This document shows positions 1,455-36,478 of a DNA stretch of 64,000 nucleotides, piece after piece. Numbering within the stretch: position 1 is the stretch's first letter; every line of letters starts with the position of its first letter. A program made the position numbers and the translations under genes. Source of the DNA: an uncultured bacterium (GTDB lineage: Bacteria > Actinomycetota > Coriobacteriia > Coriobacteriales > Coriobacteriaceae); the NCBI GenBank assembly GCA_905214465.1, contig CAJMMD010000001.1, positions 487-64,486 on the forward strand. The letters are read 5' to 3'. Below the pieces are notes generated by a model. The model made no database searches and was not told the DNA's origin. It was given only the letters and a program-made list of their open reading frames with translations.

Positions 1455-1485
1455 ATGTGACAAAGGGACTGTCCCTTTGTCACAT
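1455..1485. repeat. 31-bp perfect palindrome ATGTGACAAAGGGAC-T-GTCCCTTTGTCACAT, site 1
   Basis: Two 15-bp arms with a 1-nt spacer. It overlaps the LysR stop codon. The same palindrome recurs at 14488, 17952 and 23921. Confidence 0.7.
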
Positions 1486-2361
1486 CCCATTCAAGCGGTT
1501 CAGGAACTCTTCGCAGGCGCGAGAACGCAGGCGATATTTTTTCCACACCAGATACGATGCAATGGTGAGCGGCGGCTCAAACGGGATAAAACGCAGGTCG
1601 CTGCTTTCATCTATCTGCAACAAGCTTCCAATACCAACCGCACATGCGGTGCCCGAACGCACCAGGTGCGACGCGTTGCCGATCAGATCGAAATGCCCCA
1701 CGACGTTGAGGTCATCGAAGCTGAAGACGCCGCCCGACCACACTTCGAGATCGAACGCTCGATTCGAGGTACGCGAACTCACCAGCAGCGGCATCTTCGC
1801 CACGTCCGCAGGCGTTAACACGTCCAGGCCACCCCATGGACCGCTCGCGGCGACAACGGCGCCGGCCCGGTCAGCCTCAGGCATACGGATCCACTCGTAT
1901 TTCTCGACGTTAACGGGCTCCAACAGCAGGGCAAAGTCGAGCAAGCCACGCTCCAAGCGCTCCTCCACCGCATCGGCATTGCCGGTATAGAGCTCAATCG
2001 TCACTCCGGGATGACTCCGATGCAGCTCAGCAAAAGTATCGAGCACCAGCCGCATCGATTTGGTTTCGCCGGCTCCAATGCGGATAACGCCTGCAATGCC
2101 GAGCTCCCGATCCGCCAACTCTAGCTCGGTCTGTTCCACCAGCAAGACAATCTCCTCGGCGCGCTGGCGCAAGCGCATGCCATCGCTCGTGAGCACACAC
2201 GATCGATTGGTGCGCTCGAACAGCTCCACGCCCAGCTCGCGTTCCAAATCGGCTATCTGGCGCGAGAGCGTGGGCTGCGTCACATGTAGCACGTTAGCAG
2301 CTTCGGTCATGTTTTCCTCGCGGGCCACAGCAAGAAAATAACGCAGCGTTCGCAGCTCCAT
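1480..2361 (-). CDS. LysR-family transcriptional regulator
   Basis: N-terminal HTH MELRTLRYFLAVAREENMTEAANVLHVTQPTLSRQIADLE. The start is taken at MELRTL; the track ORF extends 14 codons further upstream. It is divergent from the aldo/keto reductase genes. Confidence 0.85.
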   Translation of the reverse strand: MELRTLRYFLAVAREENMTEAANVLHVTQPTLSRQIADLERELGVELFERTNRSCVLTSDGMRLRQRAEEIVLLVEQTELELADRELGIAGVIRIGAGETKSMRLVLDTFAELHRSHPGVTIELYTGNADAVEERLERGLLDFALLLEPVNVEKYEWIRMPEADRAGAVVAASGPWGGLDVLTPADVAKMPLLVSSRTSNRAFDLEVWSGGVFSFDDLNVVGHFDLIGNASHLVRSGTACAVGIGSLLQIDESSDLRFIPFEPPLTIASYLVWKKYRLRSRACEEFLNRLNGM

Positions 2362-2413
2362 GATTGCTCCTTCGTGCACAACGGAGAACTTCATTCGGTC
2401 CAATTCGTTTCAC

Positions 2414-2428
2414 ATACATAATCCGTAT
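2414..2428. promoter_or_regulatory. Putative LysR box (T-N11-A dyad ATAC..GTAT) in the divergent promoter
   Basis: ATACATAATCCGTAT lies between the divergent LysR and AKR genes. Confidence 0.3.
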
Positions 2429-2511
2429 ATCTAGCTAGTTGCTATAGGAAATATACATTATCAAATCTCGGAACTATCGTTACAGAAGAGAACCAGCGAG
2501 AAAGGAAGCGC

Positions 2512-3360
2512 ATGGAATACATCACGCTCAATAACGGCATCAAAAGCCCCCAGCTAGGACTTGGCACGTATCTGCTTAAACCCGACGATGCCCAATCGTC
2601 GGTTACCTCCGCACTCGGCATGGGGTATGAGCTCATCGACACTGCCAATGCATACGTGAATGAGCGAGCAGTGGGTCGTGGCGTGCGCGAATCAGACTTG
2701 CCACGCGAAAACGTGTTTCTCGAAACCAAGCTCTGGCCCTATTTTTACAACAGCGACACCGCCGTTGACGAAACGCTCGAGCGTCTGAACACACCTTACA
2801 TCGACCTCATGATTCTGCACCAACCCGCAGGCGACTACTTGGCGGGCTATGAGAAGCTTGAGATCGCGTACAAGGAAGGCAAGCTCCGCTCCATCGGAAT
2901 CTCCAATTTCGACGAGAACGAAATCGAGAAGCTTCTCGCAAATTGCGAGATCGTTCCATCCCTTATTCAGGTCGAGTGCCATCCGTATTTCCCGCAGACC
3001 GAACTGAAGAAGCTGCTCGCCCAGCACGACATTGCGTTGCAGGTGTGGTACCCGCTCGGCGGGCGCGGTAACAGCAGCATCATGAACGAACCCGTCGTGC
3101 GCGACCTCGCTGTCAAGTATGGCAAAACGCCTGCTCAAATCATTATGCGTTGGCATATCCAAGAGGGAAATATCGTCATTCCAGGCTCCAAGAATCCGAC
3201 GCACATCGCCGACAACATCGATGTCTTCGACTTCGAGCTCACGGACAGCGACATGACCGCCATGGCTACCCTCGATCGCGGGAAACCCTTCTATGAGCGC
3301 ACGCCCGAGAAGCTTGCGCAATATGCCGCCTGGCACCCCGACGTTGAGAACCAGAAATAG
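2512..3360 (+). CDS. Aldo/keto reductase (2,5-diketo-D-gluconate reductase-like)
   Basis: 282 aa with GLGTY, the IDTANAY motif and the AKR fold pattern. Confidence 0.85.
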   Translation: MEYITLNNGIKSPQLGLGTYLLKPDDAQSSVTSALGMGYELIDTANAYVNERAVGRGVRESDLPRENVFLETKLWPYFYNSDTAVDETLERLNTPYIDLMILHQPAGDYLAGYEKLEIAYKEGKLRSIGISNFDENEIEKLLANCEIVPSLIQVECHPYFPQTELKKLLAQHDIALQVWYPLGGRGNSSIMNEPVVRDLAVKYGKTPAQIIMRWHIQEGNIVIPGSKNPTHIADNIDVFDFELTDSDMTAMATLDRGKPFYERTPEKLAQYAAWHPDVENQK

Positions 3361-3367
3361 GAGCATC

Positions 3368-4387
3368 ATGCAGTACACAACCCTTGGCCATTCCGGCATT
3401 AAAGTCTCTAAACTCTGCCTGGGAGGCATGAGCTTTGGCGAGCCCAGCCCCGACTTTCATCAGTGGACCATCGGACCCGACGGCACACGCGCCGTCATCA
3501 AACGCGCACTCGACACCGGAATCAACTTTATCGATACCGCGAACTGCTACAGCTTTGGCACGAGCGAAGAGTACATTGGCGCCGCCCTGCGCAATCTGGG
3601 AATCGCTCGCGAGAGCGTCGTGCTGGCTAGCAAGGTTCACTTCAACGAGGGCGGCCTTTCCGCCAACGCCATCAAACGCGAGATCGAAGGCTCGCTCAAG
3701 CGCTTGGGCACCGATTACCTAGACCTCTACATCATTCACCGCTTCGATTACGACGTTCCCATGGAAGAGACCATGGAGGCGCTCAACGACTTGGCGCGCG
3801 AGGGCAAGGTTCGCGCGCTCGGCGCCAGCGCTATGTATGCTTACCAGCTGCACAACCTGCAGATCGTCGCGCGCGACCACGGATGGACGCCCTTTACGAG
3901 CATGCAGTGCCACTACAACCTGCTGTACCGAGAGGACGAGCGCGAGATGATCCCGGTGTGCCGCCAGTTTGACATGGCCCTTACGCCATACAGCCCCATG
4001 GCTTCGGGACACCTCTGCCGACCCACGTGGGAAAGCTCGAGCACACGCGGCACCACCGACACGACCATGGCCAACAAGTACGACCATGATCGCGCCATCG
4101 ACATGCCCGTCATTGAGCGCGTGGCCAAGATTGCCGCCGATCACGACGTGCCGATGTCGAGGATTGCGCTGGCATGGCACTGGGCACGTGGTGTGGCGGC
4201 CCCCATCGTGGGCTGCTCCAAGCCCGAGCGCGTCGACGATGCCGTGGCCGAGCTCGACGTAACGCTCTCGCCCGCCGAGATCGAGTTCCTCGAAGAGCTC
4301 TATCAACCGCACGCGCTCGTTGGCCCCAAGGCCCGTCCCGGCGAAAAGCCGCTTGCCGGCACCACCAAGGTCAAAACCACAAAGTGA
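3368..4387 (+). CDS. Aldo/keto reductase (second, larger AKR)
   Basis: The start is MQYTTLGHSGIKVSKLCLGGMSFG, after RBS ggagcatcATG. IDTANCY motif present. The track ORF begins 25 codons upstream, probably spuriously. Confidence 0.85.
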   Translation: MQYTTLGHSGIKVSKLCLGGMSFGEPSPDFHQWTIGPDGTRAVIKRALDTGINFIDTANCYSFGTSEEYIGAALRNLGIARESVVLASKVHFNEGGLSANAIKREIEGSLKRLGTDYLDLYIIHRFDYDVPMEETMEALNDLAREGKVRALGASAMYAYQLHNLQIVARDHGWTPFTSMQCHYNLLYREDEREMIPVCRQFDMALTPYSPMASGHLCRPTWESSSTRGTTDTTMANKYDHDRAIDMPVIERVAKIAADHDVPMSRIALAWHWARGVAAPIVGCSKPERVDDAVAELDVTLSPAEIEFLEELYQPHALVGPKARPGEKPLAGTTKVKTTK

Positions 4388-4391
4388 TGCC

Positions 4392-4631
4392 ATGGACGAC
4401 AACATCATCGACAGCCTACGCGACGCCGGTTGCAGCGAAGAGTTTATCGAGCTATACGGCACTGCTGCCAGCGACTGTGCGCGCATTTGCCTACTAAAAC
4501 GGCATCGCCGCGAATTGCTCAACGATATACACGCGGGGCAACAGAAGCTCGAATGCCTTGACTATCTCATCTATCGGCTACGCAACGCCTCAACCGGATG
4601 CTGTTCAAGCCGCTCGGTATCGCGGCCATGA
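4392..4631 (+). CDS. Small hypothetical protein (79 aa)
   Basis: The ATG lies 2 nt after the AKR stop; no recognisable domain. Uncertain. Confidence 0.3.
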   Translation: MDDNIIDSLRDAGCSEEFIELYGTAASDCARICLLKRHRRELLNDIHAGQQKLECLDYLIYRLRNASTGCCSSRSVSRP

Positions 4632-4690
4632 GGCGGCACTTAATAGCACCTCACCATAAAACCTAACCCTCAGCAACGAAAGGGACTCCA

Positions 4691-5164
4691 ATGGCTAAGA
4701 CACTTGTGGCATATTTCAGCGCATCGGGAACAACGATGGACGTTGCGAGCCGCTTGGCTCGCGTGACGGACAGTGACCTGTTCGCCATTGTGCCCGTCAA
4801 TCCATACACGAGCGCCGACCTCAACTGGCGCGACAAGCAGAGCCGCAGCACACGCGAGGCCGCCGACCCCTCCTGCCGCCCCGCCATAACCTCTAGAGTG
4901 GAGCACATCGAAGGCTACGACACCATCTTTTTGGGTTTCCCCATATGGTGGTACGTGGCACCGGCGATTATCAACACATTCCTTGAGTCTTACGACCTGA
5001 CAGGCAAGACGATCGTCCTGTTTGCCACTTCGGGCGGAAGCGGAATGGGAAAGACGGCGTCGGTCCTTAGGGCAAGCGCTCCGGGTGCAAAGATCGTTGA
5101 CGACGGCATCCTCAACAACGCAAGCAAAGCCGACCTCGAGAAGTTCGCGGCAAGGTACCTCTAA
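4691..5164 (+). CDS. Flavodoxin
   Basis: 157 aa. MAKTLVAYFSASGTT FMN-binding loop and PIWWYVAPAIIN motif. Confidence 0.8.
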   Translation: MAKTLVAYFSASGTTMDVASRLARVTDSDLFAIVPVNPYTSADLNWRDKQSRSTREAADPSCRPAITSRVEHIEGYDTIFLGFPIWWYVAPAIINTFLESYDLTGKTIVLFATSGGSGMGKTASVLRASAPGAKIVDDGILNNASKADLEKFAARYL

Positions 5165-5418
5165 CGCGACAAAGGCCGACAAATCGGCGGGGAAATGCCG
5201 TGGAATAATAGGACCGCGAGCACGGTATCACCGCCAACGGTTGGTTTAGCACCCGACCTTTGCCTTCCCTGGCAAGGACGCGAGCGACGAGCAGCTCGAG
5301 CCCATGAACGACGAGCGGCGCGGCACGCTGGAAGCCCAAGTCGACAATACGCCCAGCCAGAAACGGTCACTCGGCACCACCCGCCCCTCCAACCGACCAC
5401 GTGCAACGAAGACAGCAT

Positions 5419-5460
5419 AACAAGCAAAGGGGCCGCTCCATGGCGGCCCCTTTGCTTGTT
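5419..5460. terminator. Bidirectional intrinsic terminator (GC-rich perfect palindrome)
   Basis: AACAAGCAAAGGGGCCGC-tccatg-GCGGCCCCTTTGCTTGTT followed by ATTTGT. It lies between flavodoxin (+) and the small ORF/mgtA operon (-). Confidence 0.65.
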
Positions 5461-5614
5461 ATTTGTCCTTCGGCAGTGGCTTCATGCTCCAAAAGACGAC
5501 GTTCATAATGACGACAATGACGAGCACGACGCCGTTGGCCACCCAAAAACCCATATTGAGCCCGAGCCACTCCGAGGTACCAAACAGGTCAATCCAAATC
5601 TGCGTCCAGTTCAT
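5459..5614 (-). CDS. 51-aa hydrophobic small membrane protein downstream of mgtA
   Basis: MNWTQIWIDLFGTSEWLGLNMGFWVANGVVLVIVVIMNVVFWSMKPLPKDK, one predicted TM helix. It is below the 60-aa ORF-track cutoff. It begins 28 nt after the mgtA stop. Confidence 0.35.
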   Translation of the reverse strand: MNWTQIWIDLFGTSEWLGLNMGFWVANGVVLVIVVIMNVVFWSMKPLPKDK

Positions 5615-5644
5615 GCGAACGCTCCTCTCATCTCAAATCCCCTG

Positions 5645-8413
5645 TTACAGCAACTCGCCATAGCGCCTGACATAGGCCTTCTTAAGGCTTGTCGCCAACG
5701 CCATATACAGCAAGATGCACGGGATCAGGAACAGGAAGTACTCAACGGGCAGGGCACCCAGACCCAACGTAGGCCCAAGCGGGCTAAACGGAATCACCGT
5801 GAGCAGCGCGATACCCGTCATCGTGAGCAGCATTACCGGCGCTGAGGCGTGGCTCTGGATAAACGGCAGCTTGGGCGTGCGGATCATGTGAATGACCAGC
5901 GTCTGACTCCACATGGACTCGACAAACCAACCGGCTTGGAACAGCGCGATATATGCCAACTGCATCTGCTCCAGCGCAGCGCCCGAGTAAACGTGTGCCA
6001 GATCGTTAAAGAGCACGCCATGGCTCACAAACAGCGGACAGAAGACAAAGTACATAAAGATGTAGGTCATAAAGTCGAAGATGGAGCTGGTGGGACCGAT
6101 CCAGATCATGAACCTGCCGACACTCGACGCATCCCAGGTACGCGGCACGCGCAGGAACTCCTCGTCCACGTTATCCCAGGGAATCGCCAGGCAGCTGCAG
6201 TCATAAATCAAGTTGAGCAAAATCAGCTGGATGCTCATCATGGGCAAAAACGGCAGCAGGGCAGACGCGGCAAGCACGCTAAACATGTTGCCGAAGTTAG
6301 AGCTCGCGGTCATCTTGATGTACTTGATCATGTTAGCGTAGGTCTTACGCCCCTCGATGATGCCCTCCTCGAGCACCATCAGGTCCTTCTCGAGCAAAAT
6401 AATGTCCGCCGACTCCTTGGCAACGTCGACAGCGGTATCGACCGAGATTCCGATATCGGACGACTTCATGGCCGAGGCATCGTTGATGCCGTCACCCATA
6501 TAGCCCACAACATGCCCGTTGTCGCGCAGAACGGAGACGACACGCGCCTTTTGGTCGGGCGTGAGCTTGGCAAACACCTGCACGTCCTCGGCGCGGCGGG
6601 CGAGCTCCGCATCATCCATGGCGGCAATATCGCTGCCCAGCAGCATGTTGTTGACCTGCAGCCCCACCTGCTTGCAGATGGTACGCGTGACCTTCTCGTT
6701 GTCTCCGGTCAAAATCTTGGTGGCGACGCCATGATTGCGCAGTGCCTCGATAGCATCGGCCGTCGACTCTTTGGGCGGATCCAAAAACGCCAGATAGCCG
6801 ATTAGGACCATATCGCACTCGTCTTGGGCGCTAAAGGCGCCGACCGGCGAAGGATTGGACTTTTGCGCAATCGCCAACACGCGAAAACCGTCGTCGTTCA
6901 GATCGGCGACCGTTGCAAGGATGCGCTCGCGCACTTTGCCATCCAGCACGCGAACCGCACCATCGATCTCGGCATGCGAGCACACCGAGAGCATTTCCTC
7001 GACAGCGCCCTTGGTGACCATCTGAGTCTTGCCGCTGCAATCGCGCACCACGGTGGTAAGGCGACGGCGCGCAAAATCAAACGGCACCTCGTCGACCTTT
7101 ACGTATGTCTCCGAAAGATCGGTGAGACTCGGGTCGTTTTGCTCCTCTTCCTCGGTGCACTTGATAATCGCCAGGTCCATGAGGTTCTTGTAGCCCGTCT
7201 GGAAATAGCTGTTGAGATAGGCGTGGCGCAAAACGCGCGAATCCTCCTGACCGTTGATATTCCAGTGATACTCCAGCACCACCTGGTCCTGCGTCAGCGT
7301 GCCGGTCTTGTCCGTGCACAGCACGTCCATGGCGCCAAAGTTCTGAATCGAGTTGAGGTTCTTAACGATGGTCTGTTTTTTGCTCATGGCAACTGCGCCC
7401 TTGGCAAGGCACGTGGTGACAATCATGGGCAGCATCTCGGGCGTAAGACCCACGGTAATGCTGATGGCAAAGAGGCCGGCATCGAGCCAGTTGCCCTTGG
7501 TAACGCCGTTAATCAAAAAGACGAATGGGACCATCACCATCATAAAGCGGATGAGCACCCACGAGACGCCATTGACGCCTTTGGAAAAGCTGGTCTCCAC
7601 GGCGTCATCCGAAAGGCTCGACGCCATCGAACCAAACAGAGTCTGCTCGCCCACGCTAAAGACGGCTGCGGTCGCGCTGCCCGAGATCACGCTGCTGCCC
7701 ATAAGGGCGATATTCTCGAACGACGTTGCCGAATCGGATTCTACACAGGTCGTGGGCATTTTCTCGACAGGCTCGCTCTCACCCGTCAGGCTGGCCTGGC
7801 TCACAAAGAGGTCCTTGGCCTCGATGATTCTCACATCCGCAGGGATCATGTCGCCAGCGGAAAGGTGCACAATGTCGCCGACCACCACATCGTCGATGGG
7901 AATCTCCTCCTTGGGAGCACCCTTTCGAGTGACCGTCACGGTCGTCGTGATCATGTCGAGCAGCTTTTCGGCCGCGTTGCCGCTACGCGCCTCCTGGATA
8001 TAGCGCAACGTGCCCGAAAGCACCACCATCGTGGTGATGATAATCACGGTCAGCGGATCGAAATCTTCCGGCACGCTCCCCATAAGCGAAAGGGCGGGAA
8101 ACACCATGTCCGTTGCCGCCGAGATAATGGCCAGGAAAAATAGGATTGCCGTAAAGGGGTTGACGAAGGCGTCTGCGAGCCTGCGGGCCAGCGACTTATT
8201 CTTGCCGCGCGTGACCACGTTGCGCCCGTTGTCCGCCTCACTGTGTGCGACCTCGTCGCGATCCAGACCACCCAGGTTGGACCCGACCCATGTCATAGCA
8301 TCGCTCAGCGGAATGGTCGCCGCATACTGGATGCGCCCCTCCGCACGATGCCGAATCAAATCGTGCTGCGCTTGAGCCGTCGAAGCCGCACGGTGCATGG
8401 TTAACATCTTCAC
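5645..8413 (-). CDS. mgtA: Mg2+-importing P-type ATPase (MgtA-like)
   Basis: 922 aa. CTDKTGTLT phosphorylation motif, [16 protein letters not shown], ten TM segments, and an MgtA-like C-terminus. GTG/ATG start ambiguity across 8398-8413. Confidence 0.85.
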
Positions 8414-8573
8414 TTACTACGCTCCGTTCTATCGATTGCATGCAGAGCAACTTAGCTGCGGCGGTCCTTAACAAGATGGGACCGCGGCGACGCACACCGC
8501 CCTGCGCTTCCGGTACTGTCACTGCCGCTCAAGGTCCTCACCTCTCCTTCGCGTCTGCGACTGTTCACAGCAT

Positions 8574-8620
8574 AGAAAAGCCGCAAGACCAGGCACATGG
8601 CTGGTTTCTTGCGGCTTTCT
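8574..8620 (-). terminator. Intrinsic terminator/attenuator hairpin in the 266-nt region between the regulator and mgtA
   Basis: On the minus strand AGAAAGCCGCAAGA..TCTTGCGGCTTTTCT is followed by a U-rich tract. Either it terminates the upstream ATPase/regulator operon or it is an attenuator in the mgtA leader. Confidence 0.5.
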
Positions 8621-8679
8621 TGCGATTCGGCAAGGATTGTTCTGCTGCTTTCTATTGGCGGGGGCAATAGGCCAAAGCG

Positions 8680-9162
8680 TCATTCCGTCATCTTGTAGCC
8701 CACGCCCCACACGGTTAGCAGGTAGCGCGGGTTGTCGGGCTCGGGCTCGATCTTCTTTCGAATCTTTCGGACAAAGGCCATGATGTTGCTGTCGTCGAGC
8801 AAATACTCGTCCCGCCACACCGCTCGATAGATTTCTTCCTTGCTAAAGACCGTGCCCCTATTGGTGGCCAAAAAGGCAAGGATGTCAAACTCCTTGGGCG
8901 TGAGCGAGGCGGGTGCACCCAAGACCTTCACGGTGCGCGAAGCCAGGTCAATCGACAGCCCGTCGATAACGATGGGCTCTGCGGCGGAACCCGGCTGCGA
9001 ACCCGCGAGCATGAGTTCGACGGATGTGAGTCTGCCCGACGCGACATCGGCAAATATAGGCGCAAGCTCGTGGGCGGCGGCACTGCCGGACGAGAACAGC
9101 GCACCGCTGAGCTCGGCGGCCTCGGCGGGCGTGATCGCTATGTTGGTTCTGTTCGTTTGCAT
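8680..9162 (-). CDS. Winged-helix transcriptional regulator with an OmpR/PhoB-type DNA-binding domain and no receiver domain
   Basis: The C-terminal ~100 aa (LTPKEFDILAFLATNRGTVFSKEEIYRAVW...YLLTVWGVGYKM) is a trans_reg_C wHTH. The N-terminal 60 aa is Ala-rich and is not a REC domain. Confidence 0.7.
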   Translation of the reverse strand: MQTNRTNIAITPAEAAELSGALFSSGSAAAHELAPIFADVASGRLTSVELMLAGSQPGSAAEPIVIDGLSIDLASRTVKVLGAPASLTPKEFDILAFLATNRGTVFSKEEIYRAVWRDEYLLDDSNIMAFVRKIRKKIEPEPDNPRYLLTVWGVGYKMTE

Positions 9163-9171
9163 AGAACCACC

Positions 9172-11616: not shown

Positions 11617-11878
11617 CAGAGCCTCTTTCTAGCATGGATTCGATTGTATCCGAGGCATATACCGGTATCCCCGCCCCACTCCTTGCGACTTCCTTGCTTT
11701 TGCATGCAACACATGTGACACAGGAACGGCCCCTTTGCCTTATTCCTTGATTTCCGGTTACCGCACACAAAGAACAAACGCCTGCTAATCATTTACGCTC
11801 AGGGACATGTGTACGCCACAGACGGAAAACGATGGGGATCGAGGGCTTCGCGCAGCAGCTCACCGAACATGACAAGAA

Positions 11879-12067
11879 GTGCATCCAGTGATACTGCACA
11901 TACCCAAAATCGCAGCAACTGTCCTCGTCATGGCGTTCGCAGTATGTCTGCTGAGGCTGCCACTCCGCATGACCAACGACATCGTATTTCGCCAAAAGGG
12001 TTTCCAACCAGCGGGAATGTATTCCGCAATCACACTCCCCGCAATCGCACTCACCATCTTTTGCTAA
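11879..12067 (+). CDS. Small membrane protein (62 aa), paralog of the N-terminal domain of the 13340-14473 protein
   Basis: GTG start. IAATVLVMAFAVCLLRLPLRMTNDIVFRQKGFQPAGMYSAITLPAIALTIFC aligns with residues ~20-75 of the 377-aa protein (VAGAALAMAFVLPLSIIPFEMVDDIVFHHEGFQETGMMTALVLTSIELVIFC). Confidence 0.4.
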   Translation: MHPVILHIPKIAATVLVMAFAVCLLRLPLRMTNDIVFRQKGFQPAGMYSAITLPAIALTIFC

Positions 12068-12175
12068 TGCGCCCTTGCACCGCGCTTTGGGATGCAGGAC
12101 AAACAGTGAAAGGAGCTGCAAGCAGGTTTACACTCTAGCTGCTGCTCTCAAACGCCGTCTACATCTCGAGGTCTA

Positions 12176-12345
12176 ATACTTTTCCCGAGAAGTGAACGGC
12201 TGTATTTGGGCCCCCGAAACATCGACATTTTTAGACGTTAAAACCGCAGGATTCGACTGGCAAAACCGCAGGAAATTGCACGCCAAAAGTGCCGATGCTT
12301 CGGGGGTCCGTTTTCACTCGTTCACTTCTCGGGAAAAGTATTTGA
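12176..12345. repeat. Long nested inverted repeat (24-bp perfect arms plus inner 13-bp arms) with an internal 12-nt direct repeat
   Basis: AATACTTTTCCCGAGAAGTGAACG at 12176-12199 and its exact reverse complement at 12320-12343. Inner arms cccccgaaacatcg / cgatgcttcggggg. The loop carries aaaaccgcagga twice. No ORF support. Confidence 0.5.
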
Positions 12346-13276: not shown

Positions 13277-13339
13277 CTCAGACTGATACATCCCGCGCGC
13301 CGCGCGCCGTAATGACCGCCACGACTCCAAGGACCAGCT

Positions 13340-14473: not shown

Positions 14474-14487
14474 GTGCAGGGAGATGA

Positions 14488-14518
14488 ATGTGATAAAGGG
14501 GCTGTCCCTTTGTCACAT
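14488..14518. repeat. 31-bp palindrome family, site 2 (imperfect: atgtgataaaggggctgtccctttgtcacat)
   Basis: Lies between the convergent 13340-14473 (+) and ABC transporter (-) genes and probably also serves as a bidirectional terminator. Confidence 0.65.
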
Positions 14519-17500
14519 CATTCGGAGCGCAGGGCTTCCACGGGGTCTTTCTTGGATGCGCTGCGGGCCGGCAGCAGGCCAGCGACAACCGTCAGCAACA
14601 CCGAAATCGCGATGAGCACCAGCGCATCCTGCACGGGCAGGCTCATCAGATTGGGGACCTGTTTGACCGCAAGCGCCCAGGCATTGACCGGAAAACTCAC
14701 GAGCACCACGACGACGATGGCGAAGACGCCAGCAATGAGGCCTTCGATGAAAGTCTCGGCGTTGAACACGTTGGCCACATTGCGCTTCGACGCGCCGATC
14801 GCGCGCAGGATGCCAATCTCCTTTTTACGTTCCAGCACGCTGATGTAGGTGATGATGCCGATCATGATGGAGCTGACGACCAAGCTGATGCTCACAAATG
14901 CGATGAGCACCAAGCTGATGGTGTTCACGATGTCGGTTACCGAACCCATGATAATGCCCATGTAGTCGGTGTACGAGATTGCCTGCTCGTCGTGGCCGGC
15001 GGCTTTGACCTGCTTGTTATACGCATCGATGTGATCGAGTACGCGCTCCTTGGCCTCAAAGTCGCGCGGGAAAATCTTAACCGAGATGGGATCTGCCTCA
15101 TCCGCATAGCCCAACGTGGTCAGATTGTTGTCGTAGGTGAGCTGCGACGCCTTGGCATAGCTCATCATGAGCGAACTCAGGTCCTCAGCGTCCATGTTAA
15201 AGTGGATAGCGCGAGCAAAGGCGTTCGCATCCACGCGCATGGCGCTCGCCAGGTTGGCAAAACTCGAAGACATCTGCGTCGCCATCTGGTCCATAAGCCC
15301 TGCCGCGCCCGCCTTGAGCTGAGCTGATACCGTCGTGGCAATCTGCTCGCTGACCGCCTTCATCACCTGATCCATAGACTGCTGCAAATACGGAGCCAGC
15401 TGCTTTTGCACATAGTCGCCCATCACCTGCTGCAGACGCTCGGCCAGGGCATCGCCGCCGAGCGCCCTGAGCTGAGCCAGGTATTGCTGGGCTGCGACAT
15501 CATTCTCAAGATACGACGAGAACGCGGCGGCGAGCTTCGACGCGTCCTTAAGATCTTCGGGCGACAGCGCCTTAAACTGATCAGACTGCAAAAAGCCCTC
15601 AAACAGTTGGTTGACAAGCGTTCCCACCTGCTGCATTTGCTCGGGCGTGAGCTCCAGACCGTCAAAGATGCCCGAGAAATCTGGGGCCGGTGCTTTTGCC
15701 ATGATGCTGCTGAAGTCGATGTCCTTGCCAACGCCCGAAAGGTCAATATCCAGGCCCGACAAATCGATGCCCGAAAGATCCATGCCACCGGCAGCACCCG
15801 AGAGTGCAGATGCATCGAACGAGAACGCGCTCTTCAACGCCGCCTCGTCCACACTGAACATGCTGCCCAGATCCACGCCCTGCTTGGCCTCGCCCTGCAG
15901 TTCATCGAAAGATTTGCCCGTAAAGACATCCGTCTCGTGGTGGACAAGCTGCTCCTGCACGATCTGCGAATCGGCGGCGCGCTTCATAAGCTGGCAAGTC
16001 AGCGCATGCGTATAGGCAATGCCCGGAGTCAATGCGCTCGCGTTGGCCGTCTCGTTGGGTCGCACCACGCCCACAATGCGCACGTCAATACCGTCGGCAA
16101 CCTTGGCCGCCATAAAGTCGGCATCGCCAGACATGTCAGTCCACATGCCGGTCTCTTCGTTTTTGCGATAGGCATCGGACGGCGACAGCACCTTAAACGT
16201 CGTGGACAGCGCATCGTCGTAGGTAAAGTCGGTGCCGGCCTTGGGCGTCTCGACCTTGCCGTCGGCCGTCATGGCACTGTTAACCAGGTCGTTGAGCTCA
16301 TCGATATCCAGCGCACCGATGCTGTAGAGCGTGTAGTCACCCACCGTGCCGCGGCTCGAAAGCACCATCACGGCCTCGTTGGCAGACGTAGGCCAATGGC
16401 CGGCAACGACATCGTACTGGCTGTCGAGCAGGCTCTGGTCGTCAATCATCTCGTTAAAGACCGAGGTTCCCATGGAATCCATGCTCACCGTTGCCGCCGA
16501 ACTCGCGCCGCCGCTCATGGCCTCGGTCATAGCGTTGGGCACCAGCCGGACAGGCTTCTCATCGCCCTTGCCCGCACGATAGACAACCGGCGTCACGCCG
16601 TAGCCGTACTGGATAGCGTTGACCTCTTTATTGATACCGTCGCCGTCGTCGTCAAGCCATGCCTTAAAGCTTGTCATATCGTTAGATTTAACACTTGCGA
16701 ACATGTCCTTTACGGCTGTGACCACAGGGATCTTGTCGGTTCCCTTAGCTTTGCCACCGGTAGCGTCATCGGACGAGCCCTCGCCCTTGGACGCCTCCTC
16801 ATCGGTAGCCCCATGGCCGCCCATCATGGACGACAGGTCGTAGTCTTGTTTGGAAATCGTCAGCGGGTAGCTCGAGAGCGTGTCCTCCTCGACCTTTTTG
16901 ATGTAGTCGTTTACGCCGTTGGACAGCGCCAGGATCGCCGCAATGCCGATAATGCCAATCGAGCCCGCAAAGGCCGTCATGGCCGTGCGACCCTTCTTGG
17001 TCATGAGGTTTCGGGCAGAAAGCCCCAGCGCCGTCACAAAGCTCATCGAGGTTTTGCGCGTGGGCTTGGCCTCGCGACGCGCGGCCTCGGCAGCATCAAA
17101 GGGATCTGAATCGTCGGTGATCTTGCCGTCCGCCAGGGTGACGATGCGCGTGGCGTACTTGTACGCCAGCTCGGGATTGTGCGTGACCATGATGACCAGA
17201 CGGTCGCGCGCAACGTCCTTGAGCAAATCCATGACCTGCACGGATGTCGTTGAGTCCAAGGCGCCGGTCGGCTCGTCAGCCAGCACAATCTCGGGATCGT
17301 TGATCAGGGCGCGGGCAATAGCCACGCGCTGCATCTGGCCGCCCGATAGCTGGCTCGGGCGCTTGTTAACGTGCTCGCCCAGACCGACTGCCTCAAGCGC
17401 CTTGCGTGCACGCTGGCGGCGCTCGGCATGCCCCACGCCCGTGAGCGTAAGCGCCAATTCCACGTTTTCCAAAATGGTCTGATGCGGAATGAGGTTGTAG

Positions 17501-17781
17501 CTCTGAAACACAAAGCCAATGCGATTGTTTCTGTAGGCATCCCAATCGCGGTCGCTGAAGTCCTTGGTCGAGATGCCATCGATCAACAGGTCGCCGGAAT
17601 CGAAATGGTCGAGTCCACCAATGACGTTGAGCATCGTAGTTTTACCCGAACCCGAGGGACCCAGGATGGCTACAAACTCGTTATCGCGAAAAGACAGGCT
17701 TACGCTGTCGAGCGCTACCTGCGTAAACGACTGCGTAACGTACCTTTTGCAAATATCTCTGAGATCCAGCATGGACGGCAA
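14518..17781 (-). CDS. Fused ABC transporter (N-terminal ATPase plus large extracytoplasmic domain plus C-terminal FtsX/MacB-type permease)
   Basis: 1087 aa. Walker [10 protein letters not shown], signature [15 protein letters not shown], Walker [13 protein letters not shown], then TM/periplasmic regions and C-terminal FtsX-like helices. Confidence 0.85.
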
Positions 17782-17885: not shown

Positions 17886-17982
17886 AACCGCGCCAAAAAA
17901 CGAACGGGACAGCACGCCGCATGGCGCACCATCCCGCATATAACATCCCCGATGTGACAAAGAGGCTGTCACTTTGTCACAT
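17886..17982. repeat. Extended ~100-bp repeat element (conserved 5' part plus 31-bp palindrome), site 3
   Basis: aacgaacgggacagcacgccgcatggcgcaccatcccgcatataacatc...atgtgacaaagaggctgtcactttgtcacat is shared nearly base-for-base with 23869-23951. Confidence 0.65.
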
Positions 17983-17993
17983 TCCAATGCGCG

Positions 17994-19685
17994 CTACTTT
18001 TCGAGCCCGCACGGCATAACGTTAGCGCTGCCGCGGCGAGCCTCAGTCACGGCTGCAAAGAAGCGATAGCCGCCCGAGAAGTTAAAACACTCAAAGCCAT
18101 GCTGCGCCAAAATGCGGCAAGCAATGTAGCTGCGAATGCCGCTCTGGCAAATCACGTAAACCGGCTTGGCCCGGTCGAGCTCGCCCAGGCGATTGCGCAG
18201 ATCATCGACGGGAATGTTTACGAAACCATCGATATGCCCGCGCTCATACTCCCCTTCCGTACGAACATCGAGCAGCTGCACGCTGCCATCGCGTGGCAAG
18301 TTGGGCTCATCCTCCCAATGCCACTGCGCCAGTATGCCGCGATTGAGGTTCTCGATCATAAAGCCCGCCATATTGACGGGATCCTTCGCCGATGAATACG
18401 GCGGCGCGTATGCTAGGTCCAAATCCTTAAGCCTATCGCCGCGCATGCCTGCCTGGATGGCAGTCGCCAGAACGTCGATACGCTTGTCCACACCATCGAT
18501 GCCCACGATTTGCGCACCCAGCAGGCGCAATCCCTGCTTCTCGAAGATAACCTTCATGGTCATGGGCGTTGCACCCGGATAATAACCCGCATGCGAACCG
18601 GGCGACAGGACCACGCTGTCGCAGTCAATTCCCGCCGCGTGTGCTGCCTTTTCGGATAGTCCCGTGCTTGCCGCCGTCAAGTCGAATACCTTGATAACCG
18701 ATGAGCCCAACGATCCGCGGTAGCAGCTGTCCATGCCGGCTATGACATCGGCGACGACACGCCCCTGCTTGTTGGCGGGGCCGGCGAGCGAAATGACCGC
18801 GTCCTCGCCGGTCACCTGATGCGTGACCTGCACGGCATCGCCCACGGCATACACGTCGGCAGCAGAGGTCTCCATGCGGTCGTTGACCACAATAGCCCCC
18901 TTGATGCCCAGTTCGAGCCCCGCCTCTTGCGCCAGATGGCTCTCAGGTGCCACGCCAATGGCAAGCAGCACCATATCGGCTCCGATAGGGTCATCGCCCG
19001 CAACATGGGTGACAACGCGGCCATCAACTTCCTCAAAACCTGTCACATCGGCCTTGAGGCGCAGATCGATACCGTGCTCACGCACCTCGGTATGCAAAAG
19101 GGTCGCCATGTCGTAATCCAGGTTGTTCATAAGCTGGACGGGACGCTGCAGAAGGGTCACCTGGAGCCCCAGCTCGCACAGATTCTCCGCCGTCTCGACG
19201 CCAATGAAGCCGCCGCCGATCACGACGGCACTGCTCGGTCGCCGCTCTCGAACATAGCTGTGAATACGCAGCGTGTCCTCAACGGTGCGTAGGCTAAAGA
19301 TTTTATCCGAGTCGATGCCCGGCAACGCAGGGCGAATCGGCTTTGCACCCGGCGACAGGATGAGCTTGTCATACGTCTCGACAAATTCCTCGCCCGTCAG
19401 CATATTGCGAACCTCGACCGTATGCGAATCGGGATGGATGGCAAACACCTCGTGACTCGTCTTGACCGCAATGCGAAAGCGATCCCAAAAGCCCTTGGGA
19501 GACTGCAGCGTCAATGCGCTCTCTTCTTCTATCACGCCGCCAATGTAGTACGGAAGCCCACAGTTGGCATACGATACAAAACCCGTGCGCTCAAAGATGA
19601 CAATTTGGGCCTGCTCGTCGAGTCTGCGCAAACGTGCGGCCGCCGATGCGCCGCCTGCGACGCCTCCAACGATAACCACCTTCAT
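17994..19685 (-). CDS. CoA-disulfide reductase / NADH oxidase with a C-terminal rhodanese domain (CoADR-RHD)
   Basis: MKVVIVGGVAGGASAA FAD-binding start, redox-active SYANCGLPY, and a C-terminal rhodanese (VYVICQSGIRS). The ATG at 19685 is preferred over the TTG at 19691. Confidence 0.85.
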   Translation of the reverse strand: MKVVIVGGVAGGASAAARLRRLDEQAQIVIFERTGFVSYANCGLPYYIGGVIEEESALTLQSPKGFWDRFRIAVKTSHEVFAIHPDSHTVEVRNMLTGEEFVETYDKLILSPGAKPIRPALPGIDSDKIFSLRTVEDTLRIHSYVRERRPSSAVVIGGGFIGVETAENLCELGLQVTLLQRPVQLMNNLDYDMATLLHTEVREHGIDLRLKADVTGFEEVDGRVVTHVAGDDPIGADMVLLAIGVAPESHLAQEAGLELGIKGAIVVNDRMETSAADVYAVGDAVQVTHQVTGEDAVISLAGPANKQGRVVADVIAGMDSCYRGSLGSSVIKVFDLTAASTGLSEKAAHAAGIDCDSVVLSPGSHAGYYPGATPMTMKVIFEKQGLRLLGAQIVGIDGVDKRIDVLATAIQAGMRGDRLKDLDLAYAPPYSSAKDPVNMAGFMIENLNRGILAQWHWEDEPNLPRDGSVQLLDVRTEGEYERGHIDGFVNIPVDDLRNRLGELDRAKPVYVICQSGIRSYIACRILAQHGFECFNFSGGYRFFAAVTEARRGSANVMPCGLEK

Positions 19686-19840
19686 AGCCAACGCACCACC
19701 TTTCCCGTGTAGCCGCTTATGCCGCCGATATTCTTGACACTGCCGTACCCCAAACGCTTAAGAAAACTCACAGCTTGGTTGCTTCGCGCACCGCTCAGGC
19801 AATGCACGAAAAGCTGCGTGCCCTTTCGACGTATACCCAT
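19682..19840 (-). CDS. Rhodanese half-domain ORF (52 codons; C-terminal active-site half only)
   Basis: MGIRRKGTQLFVHCLSGARSNQAVSFLKRLGYGSVKNIGGISGYTGKVVRWL. Its stop overlaps the CoADR ATG (ATGA). The N-terminal rhodanese half is absent. May be a remnant. Confidence 0.4.
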   Translation of the reverse strand: MGIRRKGTQLFVHCLSGARSNQAVSFLKRLGYGSVKNIGGISGYTGKVVRWL

Positions 19841-19911
19841 GATGCTACCCCGAAGCAGAAAAAAGAGTCGCTGTTTCCAGCGACTCCCCTTCAGTTGTCT
19901 GTCCCACGGAC

Positions 19912-20874: not shown

Positions 20875-20909
20875 GGTTCCTCCGTTTATATCGAAACTTA
20901 TATAGGTAC

Positions 20910-21899
20910 CTATTTGTTTTCGCAGGCCTGCGTGGACTGCGCGGTCTTGTCGCCCGTCACACCCAGCCCATAGCGAAAGCTAATAGCATCGACGGGGCAC
21001 GCGCCCACGCATTTGCCGCAACGAATGCACTCGGCATGGTTGGGCGTACGCGTAACGTCCACGTCCATCTGGCACACCTTGGCGCACTTGCCGCACGAGA
21101 CGCATTTACAATGATCGACCTGAATCCCCAGCAACGACACCTTGTTCATGAGTGCATAAAAAGCGCCGAGGGGGCAAATCCATTTACAGAAGGGGCGGTA
21201 GAACAGCACGCTCAGAACCGTAACCGCAATGAGGATCGCGAGCTTCCAGGTAAAGAGCTTTCCCAGCGCGGAGCGGATTCCCACGTTCATGATGGACAGC
21301 GGAATCGCGCCCTCGAGCACGCCCTGCGGACAGATGTACTTGCAAAAGAACGGGTCGCCCATGCCCACATCGTTTACCACCAAGACGGGCAGCAGCACCA
21401 CGGCAAACAGCAGCACGGCATACTTGATGTACGTGAGCGGCTTGAGCTTTTTCGTGGAGAGCTTTTTGCTGGGAATCTTATGCAAAAGCTCTTGCAGCCA
21501 TCCAAACGGGCACAAAAAGCCGCATACAAAACGTCCCAGCAGCACGCCGATTAGAATGAGCGTTCCGGTGACGTAATACGAAAAGCTAAACTTAGACGAG
21601 CCCACCACCGACTGAAACGACCCGATGGGACACGCGCCCGAGGCCGCCGGACACGAGTAGCAGTTGAGCCCCGGCACGCAGACGGCTTTGCCCGCCCCCT
21701 GGTAGATGCCTCCCTTGGCAAAGTTGGGCAGGTGAATATTGGTCGCAAGCGTCGCCGCCGCTTGAATCAATCCACGAAATCGCGCTAAAAGATGCGATGC
21801 AGTGTTTTTTCTTTTATCCAATTCCGATACACTCCAAGCACAGCCTGATTGCCTTGGCCAGCACGGCATCTGCCTCGCCGCGCATAATTCCAAAGCCAA
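20910..21899 (-). CDS. Membrane 4Fe-4S binding protein (NapH/MauN-like polyferredoxin)
   Basis: Several TM helices plus C-terminal CKCVSCGKCAKVC and CIRCGKCVGACP ferredoxin motifs. The true start may be internal. Confidence 0.7.
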   Translation of the reverse strand: MALELCAARQMPCWPRQSGCAWSVSELDKRKNTASHLLARFRGLIQAAATLATNIHLPNFAKGGIYQGAGKAVCVPGLNCYSCPAASGACPIGSFQSVVGSSKFSFSYYVTGTLILIGVLLGRFVCGFLCPFGWLQELLHKIPSKKLSTKKLKPLTYIKYAVLLFAVVLLPVLVVNDVGMGDPFFCKYICPQGVLEGAIPLSIMNVGIRSALGKLFTWKLAILIAVTVLSVLFYRPFCKWICPLGAFYALMNKVSLLGIQVDHCKCVSCGKCAKVCQMDVDVTRTPNHAECIRCGKCVGACPVDAISFRYGLGVTGDKTAQSTQACENK

Positions 21900-22049
21900 C
21901 CATGGCTACCCCAACGATCAGCAAAGCCACCTGCGTCACAGGCTTAATCGCTTTGAACAATCTGACCACTCCTTTCGTTTCGCGACCCATTGGACCATAC
22001 CGACTATAAAATCCGTGTTAAGCGTGAATGACTATGCAAGGAGAACGTT

Positions 22050-22724
22050 ATGCGCATCTTGGTCGTCGAGGACGAGCGGGCGCTGTGCGATGCGATCGCA
22101 CGCAGCCTGCGCAACTTGGCCTATAGCGTCGACTGCTGCTACGACGGGCAGCAGGCCCTCGATCTGCTCGATGTCGAGACCTTTGATCTTGTCGTGCTCG
22201 ACCTCAATCTCCCCCATGTCGACGGCATGACCGTGCTCAGGCAACTCAGGACAACTGATTGTGAGACCAAGGTGCTTGTGCTCTCGGCACGTGGCGAGGT
22301 CTCCGACAAGGTAGCGGGGCTCGATGCGGGCGCCAACGACTACCTCACCAAGCCGTTCCATCTTGACGAGCTGGCGGCACGTATACGCAGCCTCACGCTC
22401 AGGCGCTTTACGCAAAGCGACGTTGTCCTGACCTGTGGATCGCTGAGCTTTGACACCAAAGCGCGCCTCGCCTCCGTGGGCAGCGAGACCCTATCCCTCA
22501 CGCGCAAGGAGACCGGCATCTTGGAATACCTGATGCTTAACCAGGGGCGGCCGGTGAGCCAGGAAGAGCTTATCGAGCATGTATGGGACAGCAGCGTCAA
22601 CAGCTTTAGCAACGCGACCCGCGTGCACATCTCGTCGCTGCGCAAAAAGCTGCGCGGCGCGTTGGGGCACGACCCCATCCGCAACCGAATCGGCGAAGGC
22701 TACGTTATGGAGGACGGCAAATGA
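22050..22724 (+). CDS. OmpR-family response regulator
   Basis: REC domain (MRILVVEDE..DLVVLDLNLP) plus winged-helix C-terminus. Confidence 0.9.
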   Translation: MRILVVEDERALCDAIARSLRNLAYSVDCCYDGQQALDLLDVETFDLVVLDLNLPHVDGMTVLRQLRTTDCETKVLVLSARGEVSDKVAGLDAGANDYLTKPFHLDELAARIRSLTLRRFTQSDVVLTCGSLSFDTKARLASVGSETLSLTRKETGILEYLMLNQGRPVSQEELIEHVWDSSVNSFSNATRVHISSLRKKLRGALGHDPIRNRIGEGYVMEDGK

Positions 22725-23869
22725 AGCGGCTGTCTCTGCAGTGGCGCATCACGCTGATGACGGCACTGCTGATATGTTCAACCTGCGTACTTATGAATTG
22801 CCTGGTTGGCTACTCCGGCATGCGCTACATGGACTCGATCGGCAATGAACTATCGGCGCACAGCAAGGTGGAGGCGGCCTCGCCCAGCTCATTTGACCCG
22901 ACAAACAAAGAGCTCGACGACGAACTGACCATCGTCGTGAGCGACGCCCAAGAATCGTTTGGTGCGACGAGCTGGTACATAACCGCAGCGGTGACGCTAC
23001 TCGGTGGCGTGCTGGCCTACTTTGTAAGCGGGCGCGCGCTGCGACCGCTGCGCTTCTTTGCGACGCAAGTCGAGAGCGTGCGGCCCGACAACCTCGCCGA
23101 CACAAAGATTAGCGAGGACGTGCCCTCTGAACTCAGGCGCTGCAGCGCTTCGTTTAACGACATGATTGCCCGCCTTGACGAGGGATTTTCCGCACAAAGA
23201 CAGTTTACGGGCAATGCGGCGCACGAGCTGCGCACGCCGCTTGCGCTCATGCAGGCCCAGGTTGAGCTGTTTTGCGCCGAGCACCCCGACGTCGACGCCG
23301 ATACAGCGAGCCTGCTCGGGCTGCTGCAGGAGCAGACCGAGCGAATGACGCACATGACAAAGACCCTGCTCGAGATGAGCGAGCTGCGCAGTGTCCCTTG
23401 CAACGATGTGATTGACCTAGCGCCGATGATCGAAGAAGTGCTCACGGACCTGGCACCCCTTGCCGAGCAAAAAGACATCACGCTTACAAGTGAGGGCGAC
23501 GCGCAAACGATCGGCAGCGACACGCTGATCTATCGGTTGCTGTTCAACTTGACCGAAAACGCCATACGCTATAGCGCGCCCAACTCGACCGTGCAAATCA
23601 GCGCCTGCGCCGAAGGCGACCGCGTGCTGCTACGCGTGCGCGACCAGGGACCGGGCATTCCCGAGCAATACCAGACGAGCATCTTTCAGCCCTTCTTTCG
23701 CGTCGACAAATCGCGCAGCAGGGCATATGGCGGCGTGGGGCTGGGGCTTGCACTGGTCTGGGAGATTGCCGCACTCCACGGCGGCTCCATCGAGGTCGAA
23801 GAGAGCTCGGAGCGCGGAACGACCATGCTCGTGACTCTTCCCACTCGCGCACTCGGCTCATTAAAATAA
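22721..23869 (+). CDS. Sensor histidine kinase
   Basis: Two TM segments, H-box HELRTPLALM, and ATPase G-boxes (GGVGLGLALV). A 4-bp overlap with the regulator indicates an operon. Confidence 0.85.
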   Translation: MKRLSLQWRITLMTALLICSTCVLMNCLVGYSGMRYMDSIGNELSAHSKVEAASPSSFDPTNKELDDELTIVVSDAQESFGATSWYITAAVTLLGGVLAYFVSGRALRPLRFFATQVESVRPDNLADTKISEDVPSELRRCSASFNDMIARLDEGFSAQRQFTGNAAHELRTPLALMQAQVELFCAEHPDVDADTASLLGLLQEQTERMTHMTKTLLEMSELRSVPCNDVIDLAPMIEEVLTDLAPLAEQKDITLTSEGDAQTIGSDTLIYRLLFNLTENAIRYSAPNSTVQISACAEGDRVLLRVRDQGPGIPEQYQTSIFQPFFRVDKSRSRAYGGVGLGLALVWEIAALHGGSIEVEESSERGTTMLVTLPTRALGSLK

Positions 23870-23951
23870 CGAACGGGATGGCACGCCGCGTGGCGTACCA
23901 TCCCGCACATAATATCGAGGATGTGACAAAGGGACTGTCCCTTTGTCACAT
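23869..23951. repeat. Extended ~100-bp repeat element plus perfect 31-bp palindrome, site 4
   Basis: Lies between the convergent histidine kinase (+) and GMP-synthase paralog (-). Perfect atgtgacaaagggactgtccctttgtcacat. Confidence 0.7.
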
Positions 23952-36442: not shown

Positions 36443-36478
36443 GTACCACGGCAACGAGATCGTTAGATACTTCGCAAA

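Follow-up and report, generated by a model that had tools for sequence, protein, structure and literature searches.

A genus-wide palindrome at gene ends marks the junctions of gene-block exchange in Collinsella

A palindrome compared with known short repeats

Among the closest described parallels to the sequence reported here, a palindrome of 31–35 bp found in a 64,000-nucleotide stretch of DNA from an uncultured bacterium of the Coriobacteriaceae (contig CAJMMD010000001.1, positions 487–64,486; hereafter the window) and across the genus Collinsella, are the repetitive extragenic palindromic (REP) sequences and bacterial interspersed mosaic elements (BIMEs) of Enterobacteria and Pseudomonas, with their REP-associated tyrosine transposases (RAYTs). 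REPs act as stabilizers of mRNA 3′ ends and as join-points of rearrangements. Like them, the Collinsella palindrome belongs to the 20–40-bp range of extragenic, hairpin-forming palindromes that lie past stop codons, in 3′ untranslated regions (UTRs), and between cistrons. Unlike them, it is perfect rather than imperfect, occurs at ~3 copies per 900 kb rather than in hundreds, forms no BIME-type clusters, and occupies sites that are mostly orthologous across species. It resembles REPs, and we do not claim that it is one.

The dRS3 repeats, neisserial intergenic mosaic elements (NIMEs), and "minimal mobile elements" of Neisseria offer a second parallel, namely short genus-specific repeats, strain-varying cassettes between conserved genes, and repeat-module-repeat arrays. 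dRS3 has been connected with natural transformation, and with phage integration through a Piv-like enzyme. It is, however, a 20-bp repeat of other structure, and no Piv-like partner was seen for the Collinsella palindrome. Integron attC sites are similar in that a hairpin site lies directly 3′ of an open reading frame (ORF), with one site per module, arrays of modules, and empty and filled states. In contrast to integrons, no intI-like integrase or attI was found with the Collinsella palindromes, which lack R″/R′ cores and, being perfect, extrahelical bases; their modules have promoters of their own, may comprise many genes, and occur in either orientation. The XerCD-dependent pdif modules of Acinetobacter plasmids and att-flanked arrays of cis-mobilizable elements (CIMEs) likewise consist of recombinase-free modules flanked by short repeats, with one copy at the empty site. 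The palindrome does not resemble dif (11-6-11) in sequence and has a nearly symmetric, 5-nt center; it is also chromosomal and in an actinobacterium. Lastly, intrinsic terminators are stem-loops just past genes, and the inner AAAGGGAC-N-GTCCCTTT of the palindrome resembles the bidirectional A-tract/stem/T-tract design, whereas its stem is 45% GC, no U-run follows the full stem, and the sequence is common to its sites.

A search with the 27-nt core GTGACAAAGGGACNGTCCCTTTGTCAC (up to 3 mismatches) gave exactly four matches in the window, at 1457, 14490, 17954, and 23923 (0, 2, 3, and 0 mismatches, respectively), and none in 100 dinucleotide-preserving shuffles. The four-copy, 31-bp palindrome that the original prediction had placed at 1455, 14488, 17952, and 23921 is confirmed, with zero copies expected by chance. 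Two decayed copies, Pa and Pb, were also found.

1455–1485 (no strand): P1, perfect palindrome, 15-1-15, from pattern search and folding
14488–14518 (no strand): P2, palindrome with two mismatches, both in the left arm, between convergent genes
17952–17982 (no strand): P3, palindrome with three mismatches, 11 nt past the stop of a CoADR-like gene
23921–23951 (no strand): P4, perfect palindrome with arms reaching 16 nt, between a convergent histidine-kinase gene and guaA
11712–11742 (no strand): Pa, decayed palindrome ATGTGACACAGGAAC-G-GCCCCTTTGCCTTAT, from a profile search (nhmmer, E = 0.002)
~12370–12397 (no strand): Pb, decayed palindrome ATGGCAAAGGGGCAGTCTCCTGCCGCAT, from a profile built from related copies

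As predicted, all four intact copies are intergenic and adjoin a stop codon, and two of them (sites 2 and 4) lie between convergent genes, with gene context taken from Pfam and gene calls. P1 encloses the stop codon of a LysR gene (1480–1482, minus strand); it is 14 nt upstream of the dus ATG (1440) and leaves no room for a promoter. The last base of P2 is overlapped by the stop codon of an ABC-FtsX gene (14518–14520, minus strand), and a plus-strand gene for a 377-amino acid protein ends 14 nt before P2. The CoADR-like gene at P3 is CoA-disulfide-reductase-like and on the minus strand. P4 is 34 nt from the guaA stop codon (minus strand) and 51 nt from the histidine-kinase stop codon (plus strand). 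The profile search found no copies at 24–64 kb of the window, and all copies, four intact and two decayed, are confined to 24 kb. No isolated half-sites were found.

Gene modules joined at the palindrome

The palindromes mark the exact junctions at which gene blocks are present, absent, or exchanged among Collinsella genomes. Related loci, labeled L with a number, include 8-kb blocks from a scan of one genome per bacterial species, and BLAST alignments between the window and these loci end exactly at palindrome edges. Two such blocks of the window are as follows.

1486–14487 (no strand): variable segment of 13 kb between P1 and P2, absent from L081 and L107
14518–17951 (minus strand): single-gene module bounded by P2 and P3, with a fused ABC-FtsX transporter gene (14518–17772) and its upstream region

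The 13-kb segment encodes a LysR protein, two aldo-keto reductases, a flavodoxin, two P-type ATPases, a response-regulator C-terminal protein, a DUF3592 protein, and the 377-amino acid protein, which is of unknown family. In L107 and in L081, an isolate, dus is linked to the ABC gene through a single palindrome; the segment is therefore an indel bounded by P1 and P2. At least six shorter versions of it occur in other genomes, and the dus–ABC locus has at least seven structural states. The neighbors of the ABC-FtsX module vary between genomes on both sides. The adjacent CoADR segment (17983–19911) is missing in L112 and L077, and its left junction is exactly at the edge of P3.

For a junction test, we took all pairs of intergenic points within a locus and asked whether the left flank of the first stands beside the right flank of the second in another genome. 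This was so for 22 of 51 palindrome–palindrome pairs, as compared with 1 of 592 palindrome–control pairs and 0 of 1389 control–control pairs, where control points were midpoints from crude gene calls and the loci were ascertained on the palindrome. One palindrome was retained at the junction in every positive pair. Since events shared by orthologues are not independent, we count them as five indel loci and not as 22 events; several of these are backed by isolate genomes (L081, L043, and L093).

Indel locus 1: window P1–P2, the segment lacking from L081 and L107
Indel locus 2: 0.4 kb, a LysR remnant and a MITE-like element, L024 versus L043
Indel locus 3: 1.85 kb, a DUF3592 gene and the gene for the 377-amino acid protein, L108 versus L077, L112, and L114
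Indel locus 4: 0.4–0.75 kb, a module of LexA box and small peptide, 13 loci versus L048
Indel locus 5: 5.9 kb, UbiD/UbiX-containing, L009 versus L093

The site at L093:4382 has at least three alternative states, being empty or holding 1.06 or 5.96 kb. Synteny breaks were found at 55% of palindrome points, as compared with 18–31% of control intergenic points. Misassembly is unlikely to account for the junctions, as typical assembly k-mers exceed the repeat in length and isolate genomes contain the junctions too. The genes of the modules are ordinary (LysR, aldo-keto reductases, ATPases, UbiD/UbiX, AAA_14-DUF4143, and a small toxin-like peptide) and include no recombinase.

One junction, in L027 (1332–1400), is imprecise and contains 1.6 palindrome copies: past an intact palindrome come TA and a partial second copy, GGGACAGTCCCTTTGCCAC. 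The orthologous position of L087 and L085 has a single copy and lacks the MITE-like element. This arrangement suggests that a "segment plus palindrome" was inserted imprecisely into a palindrome already resident there.

The element resembling a miniature inverted-repeat transposable element (MITE) is ~200 bp in length and occurs at window 12150–12350, L024 4752–4970, L077 645–872, L027 1124–1322, and L085 6762–6906. Its terminal inverted repeats (GAGGTCTAATACTTTTCCCGAGAAGTGAACG) are ~30 bp long, and a direct repeat inside it, AAAACCGCAGGA, is present twice. It is always 14–30 bp from a palindrome copy, in at least three flanking contexts, and has no Rfam match. In the window it adjoins Pb, whose orthologous position holds an intact or near-intact palindrome in L077, L108, L024, and L100.

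Two modules between palindromes are described here by their genes. A palindrome-bounded module of 0.4 kb in L013 (2060–2304) and L138 (22919–23044; NZ_OY725717.1 662919–663044), absent from L048, has a LexA-box-like operator, TACGAACATATATTCGTA, upstream of a 41-amino acid peptide (WP_022094649.1). The peptide is hydrophobic with an Arg-rich tail, MTDLIDFVRLLTAVVSFFTALVGLSEALKQRSKRNRRGRRR, and looks like a putative SOS-induced type I toxin. The gene of an AAA_14-DUF4143 ATPase (L088 1917–3302; also in L003, L005, L029, and L093) has palindromes on both sides, 12 nt past its stop codon and ~120 nt before its start, with centers ~1549 bp apart. This ATPase was considered as a partner of the palindrome and dropped, as it occurs in only two to three orthologous contexts, which are unrelated at the DNA level.

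Distribution, position, and structure of the palindrome

The palindrome was found in at least 120 8-kb blocks from about 115 assemblies, nearly all of them genomes of different Collinsella species. The few matching loci labeled otherwise are at least 91% identical to Collinsella loci, with the exception of L098 (GC 66%), which has a symmetric variant palindrome, AACGTGAC...GTCACGTT. The 167 copies in the window and the at least 120 retrieved blocks form 24 flank-linked orthologous site groups, and the Chao1 estimate is ~56 sites (8 singletons and 1 doubleton among exact copies). The family is genus-wide and low-copy, with sites that are mostly vertically inherited. The label "species-specific" that it had been given is hence wrong, while its description as a dispersed repeat family rather than a local duplication is borne out by the number of blocks, assemblies, and flank-defined site groups (at least 24). 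Copies are clustered: ~30% of the 8-kb blocks with one copy hold another, as compared with ~1 copy per 300 kb overall. The nearest neighboring copies are at least 400 bp apart, with genes or modules between them.

An 899,693-bp replicon of C. aerofaciens has matches at five BLAST places, which correspond to about three copies because a palindromic query matches both strands; two of these copies bracket the gene of a 41-amino acid hypothetical protein. This replicon, which is full of core genes, is the sole "plasmid" match. It was deposited as "plasmid 6" of C. aerofaciens TSDC17.2-1.1 (NZ_OY725717.1; L138), carries lgt, map, dxs, pfk, and an ammonium transporter gene, and is evidently chromosomal sequence mislabeled as a plasmid. 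There were no matches to the palindrome in IMG/VR or in a phage collection. A phage or plasmid origin was rejected on these grounds.

The window had no matches in Rfam 15 at gathering thresholds, and a permissive search with site 4 gave only noise (E ≥ 0.18). In the literature searched, the palindrome sequence appeared in no paper in a bacterial context, and for Collinsella together with REP there was only a general remark on palindromic breakpoints of horizontal gene transfer, in a paper with Collinsella data. As far as Rfam and the searchable literature show, the family is previously undescribed. We also observed that a metagenomic contig encoding an identical Dus protein (L121 1–45) begins 42 bp upstream of dus, inside the palindrome, which suggests that assemblies tend to break there.

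A gene 3′ end is faced by 120 of 140 copies. In 50 of these 120 gene-facing copies, the stop codon is located −20 to +5 nt from the palindrome edge, and frequently a TGA or TAA runs directly into the palindrome's first A or an internal ATG-TGA is used. Convergent gene contexts are enriched and divergent ones depleted, with ~30% of copies lying between convergent genes. This placement fits a 3′-UTR or intercistronic hairpin. No T-run follows the palindrome on either strand, and a terminator scan does not list it. A canonical terminator-like site occurs within 110 nt downstream of 19% of the gene-facing copies; in L035, the canonical terminator lies before the palindrome. Due to the lack of a U-tract, the nearby canonical terminators, and the 14 nt between P1 and the dus start, the palindrome is unlikely to be an autonomous canonical terminator.

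Sites 3 and 4 had been predicted to carry an extended form, a REP/BIME- or MITE-like element of ~100 bp. They do have ~88 bp in common (17895–17982 and 23864–23951), and this part of the claim stands. The upstream part of the shared sequence, however, is an ordinary terminator on the minus strand: a GC-rich stem of 14–15 bp followed by TTCGTT(T/A)TTTT, as in the canonical intrinsic type. The two terminators are placed 13–14 nt past the palindrome, are ~85% identical, and, unlike the palindrome itself, are of the canonical form.

17894–17937 (minus strand): intrinsic terminator of site 3 (hairpin 17904–17937, T-run 17894–17903), downstream of the CoADR-like gene and P3
23860–23906 (minus strand): intrinsic terminator of site 4 (hairpin 23873–23906, T-rich run 23860–23872), downstream of guaA and P4

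Among 120 related loci, the 88-bp composite occurs only in orthologues of sites 3 and 4, which are 6 kb apart. This argues that palindrome and terminator were copied together once, over 6 kb, and against a dispersed 100-bp element.

The consensus of the palindrome is (G)AATGTGACAAAGGGAC-N-GTCCCTTTGTCACATT(C), and all copies are intergenic. The outer positions, which extend it to 35 bp, have a base preference and no pairing above chance. The predicted hairpin is strong (−21 to −27 kcal/mol, z about −6). Its architecture is conserved, with 13 near-invariant nucleotides per arm and a variable 5-nt center. Among orthologous pairs, chosen such that neither copy was needed for ascertainment, the stems are 92–97% identical, about equal to the mostly coding flanks (93.5–99%), whereas identity in the center is only 68–95%. 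The central base differs in 164 of 583 orthologous pairs, half of these being A/T swaps. For copies that face a single gene, the sense strand of that gene carries a central A in 46 cases (loop C-A-G in the mRNA) versus a central T in 11; all four window copies have T on the plus strand. Split by site group, this polarity is just 9 versus 4, and so we do not rely on it. The central base does not track GC skew (p = 0.33).

Where only one gene faces the copy, stem mismatches of the transition type would be G·U in the sense RNA in 15 cases and A·C in 2, or about 12 versus 2 as independent events. This modest bias is the sole RNA-specific evidence. Double changes occur at 7 stem pairs, as compared with 4.1 ± 0.9 in shuffles (4 of 500 shuffles reach 7), and a few are compensated (in L098, L052, and L078). 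In a formal count, 89.7% of cells are paired, the same as in shuffles.

Variant palindromes with other outer arms were noted in some loci (e.g., GGGGCAAAAGGGCAGTCCCTTTGCCCC in L032). A 46-bp hairpin is also present in the window at 5417–5462, with arms of 20 bp around TCCATG (ATAACAAGCAAAGGGGCCGC-TCCATG-GCGGCCCCTTTGCTTGTTAT) and a T-rich tail after it. It is located between convergent flavodoxin and P-type ATPase genes, beside a synteny breakpoint (5176–5190), and its core, GCAAAGGGGC...GCCCCTTTGC, resembles that of the palindrome.

Elsewhere in the window are two very large ORFs with no Pfam match (26329–30792, 1487 amino acids; and 33032–36505, 1157 amino acids). The first lies in a 4.3-kb segment (26382–30663) that is absent from the otherwise collinear L033. 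A region of low GC content (42000–52500; 0.47–0.55, as compared with about 0.58–0.62 elsewhere) has no palindrome copies and encodes a radical-SAM protein, a RES-domain protein, and ORFs with no Pfam match; it may be a foreign or defense island.

Possible functions of the palindrome

The explanation we favor, as a tentative one that we stop short of calling probable, is that the palindrome is a REP-like 3′-end hairpin that doubles as a crossover point for the gain and loss of gene modules. In mRNA, the palindrome would fold into a 14-bp hairpin and might act as a 3′-end barrier, attenuator, or stabilizer, as opposed to a canonical U-tract terminator. The palindromes would also serve as crossover points, through host recombination or template switching, for the deletion and re-acquisition of modules, with the resulting alleles then spreading by flanking homology. 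The crossover role is suggested because the palindromes are the only identical sequences of 31–35 bp common to many intergenic regions.

Several observations weigh against this explanation. Perfect palindromic repeats should recombine to inversions as often as to deletions, yet no inversions between palindrome pairs were seen, as compared with five independent indel loci. Simple replication slippage could not account for a deletion as long as 13 kb. All strain-level relatives whose ABC protein is identical keep the arrangement of the window, indicating that rearrangements are rare, and two exact-protein look-ups for recent rearrangement among such relatives gave identical arrangements or short contigs. 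Because of the crude gene calls, the control in the junction test is less sensitive than the palindrome test itself. We infer the RNA role from position and from the G·U bias, which is small and partly non-independent and which a transcription-linked mutation bias could also yield. The covariation score has no excess over shuffles, because the stems hardly vary. A C and a G beside the central base are conserved along with the 13 nt of each arm, and this conservation suits sequence-specific recognition no less than it suits mere pairing. Finally, the explanation does not account for the first spread of identical copies to about 25–60 sites.

A recombinase acting in trans is an alternative that we consider unlikely, though more credible than the others. 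The palindrome would then be the core site of site-specific recombination by which promoter-bearing modules are inserted and excised, one palindrome per module, building arrays such as dus-P-...-P-guaA, with analogues in att, attC, and dif sites, XerCD pdif modules, and integrase-less CIMEs. The alternation between L-P-R and L-P-module-P-R at five independent loci is the pattern of attB versus attL/attR: direct repeats stand on either side of the segment, and one copy is left where the locus is empty. This pattern, the occurrence of insertions and deletions and never of inversions, and the clustering of copies keep such an enzyme in play. The alternative modules at L093:4382 point the same way, as do the 13-nt arms and variable 5-nt center, which at 31 bp come near the size of tyrosine-recombinase core sites (13-8-13 in loxP and 11-6-11 in dif). 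The array lies, moreover, between dus and the 3′ end of guaA, both hot spots of island integration in other phyla.

No cognate enzyme was found in the modules or near the palindromes, however. The 150 representative proteins within 3.2 kb of a palindrome include no recurrent recombinase or transposase family (two or more members; Pfam, 25 families listed). A pattern for box II of tyrosine recombinases gave no matches among ORFs of at least 150 amino acids in 944 kb (the window and loci), and a serine-recombinase motif gave only one ORF (L006 6678–7346). The modules hold ordinary metabolic and transport genes and encode no recombinase of their own; a variable, nearly symmetric center of 5 nt is poorly suited to strand exchange; and the imprecise junction of L027, the lack of recent events among strain-level relatives, and the lack of matches in phage and viral collections also count against site-specific recombination. 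A related proposal is that the palindrome (13-5-13, possibly as a hairpin) is the site of an unrecognized Collinsella cassette-exchange system, an integron-like array without a linked integrase, served by a recombinase gene elsewhere in the genome. We rate this as distinctly unlikely. Membership in the integron attC sites proper is not supported: the 944 kb gave no tyrosine-recombinase motif, the recurrent families include no Phage_integrase, and the palindrome has none of the bulges of attC.

It is quite improbable that the palindrome is chiefly a double-stranded DNA site for a dimeric Collinsella protein, either a nucleoid-associated or chromosome-organizing factor or a transcriptional roadblock, with its placement at gene ends and indels being secondary. 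Such a protein would explain a limited, low-copy set of conserved sites whose sequence is kept beyond pairing (13 near-invariant nucleotides per half-site, a variable center, and no lone half-sites), as well as the base preference without pairing at the outer positions. The symmetric change in both half-sites of L098 fits co-evolution with a dimer. Binding of this kind leaves the fusion to stop codons without a reason, though, and the asymmetry of G·U versus A·C on the sense strand is not expected of a duplex site. A simple dimeric operator would be expected to be shorter than 26 conserved base pairs, convergent genes flank 30% of copies, the neighboring genes have no functional theme, and no candidate protein is known.

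To much the same degree, we doubt that the palindromes are bidirectional terminators without a U-tract, a kind proposed for Actinobacteria, that are related by old duplications and coincide with indels through gene turnover at gene ends. Independent terminators do not share 31 identical bases over more than 20 sites, and indel junctions go with palindrome pairs specifically (22 of 51, versus 0 of 1389 other intergenic pairs). This genome does have canonical terminators, two of them immediately past P3 and P4, and at P1 the dus start, 14 nt away, leaves no room for a promoter. What such terminators would account for is the strong hairpin directly past stop codons and the 81% of gene-facing copies that have no canonical terminator within 110 nt, 42 of which face a convergent gene beyond.

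The low copy number, the lack of a recurrent transposase or integrase nearby, the lack of clean solo insertions, and the lack of phage matches indicate that the palindrome is not a classical REP/BIME or MITE. In size and stability it is like a REP (31–35 bp, intergenic, and stable); in number (~3 copies per 899,693 bp and 24 site groups) and in its solitary rather than BIME-clustered copies it is not. In 1142 orthologous comparisons of filled and empty sites, nearly all were filled. These included no clean solo insertion, clean excision, or target-site duplication, nor the solo filled/empty polymorphism of a MITE, and the few apparently empty sites are replacements. An active REP, REPIN, or minimal MITE, moved by a transposase (RAYT-like or other) whose gene lies elsewhere in the genome, is therefore very improbable: a short extragenic palindrome at many sites in one genus, the MITE-like 200-bp element that adjoins it in at least three contexts, and the flipping of the loop center from A to T and back among orthologues would suit it, as against the low copy number, the overwhelmingly orthologous sites, the absence of solo polymorphism, target-site duplications, and tandem BIME-like clusters, and the absence of RAYT-like matches among six-frame ORFs of the 944 kb, the last by a weak test (phmmer with an E. 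coli RAYT sequence as query, and a pattern for HUH/Y motifs).

Collinsella is an abundant and disease-associated gut genus that is split into very many species-level genomes in the reference collection. A single conserved 31-bp sequence at the places where blocks are gained, lost, or swapped, with genes for transporters, redox enzymes, a decarboxylase pair (UbiD/UbiX), and a toxin-like peptide among them, would be a testable handle on the origin of Collinsella diversity. The palindrome can be used as a genus-specific marker, and it probably causes assemblies to break and spurious small ORFs to be called. It is also a candidate 3′-end RNA element in a phylum whose termination signals are poorly defined. 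Should the junctions be driven by an enzyme, they would represent a new system of cassette exchange, distinct from the integron and Xer paradigms, that could contribute to the extreme gene-content and species-level diversity of Collinsella.

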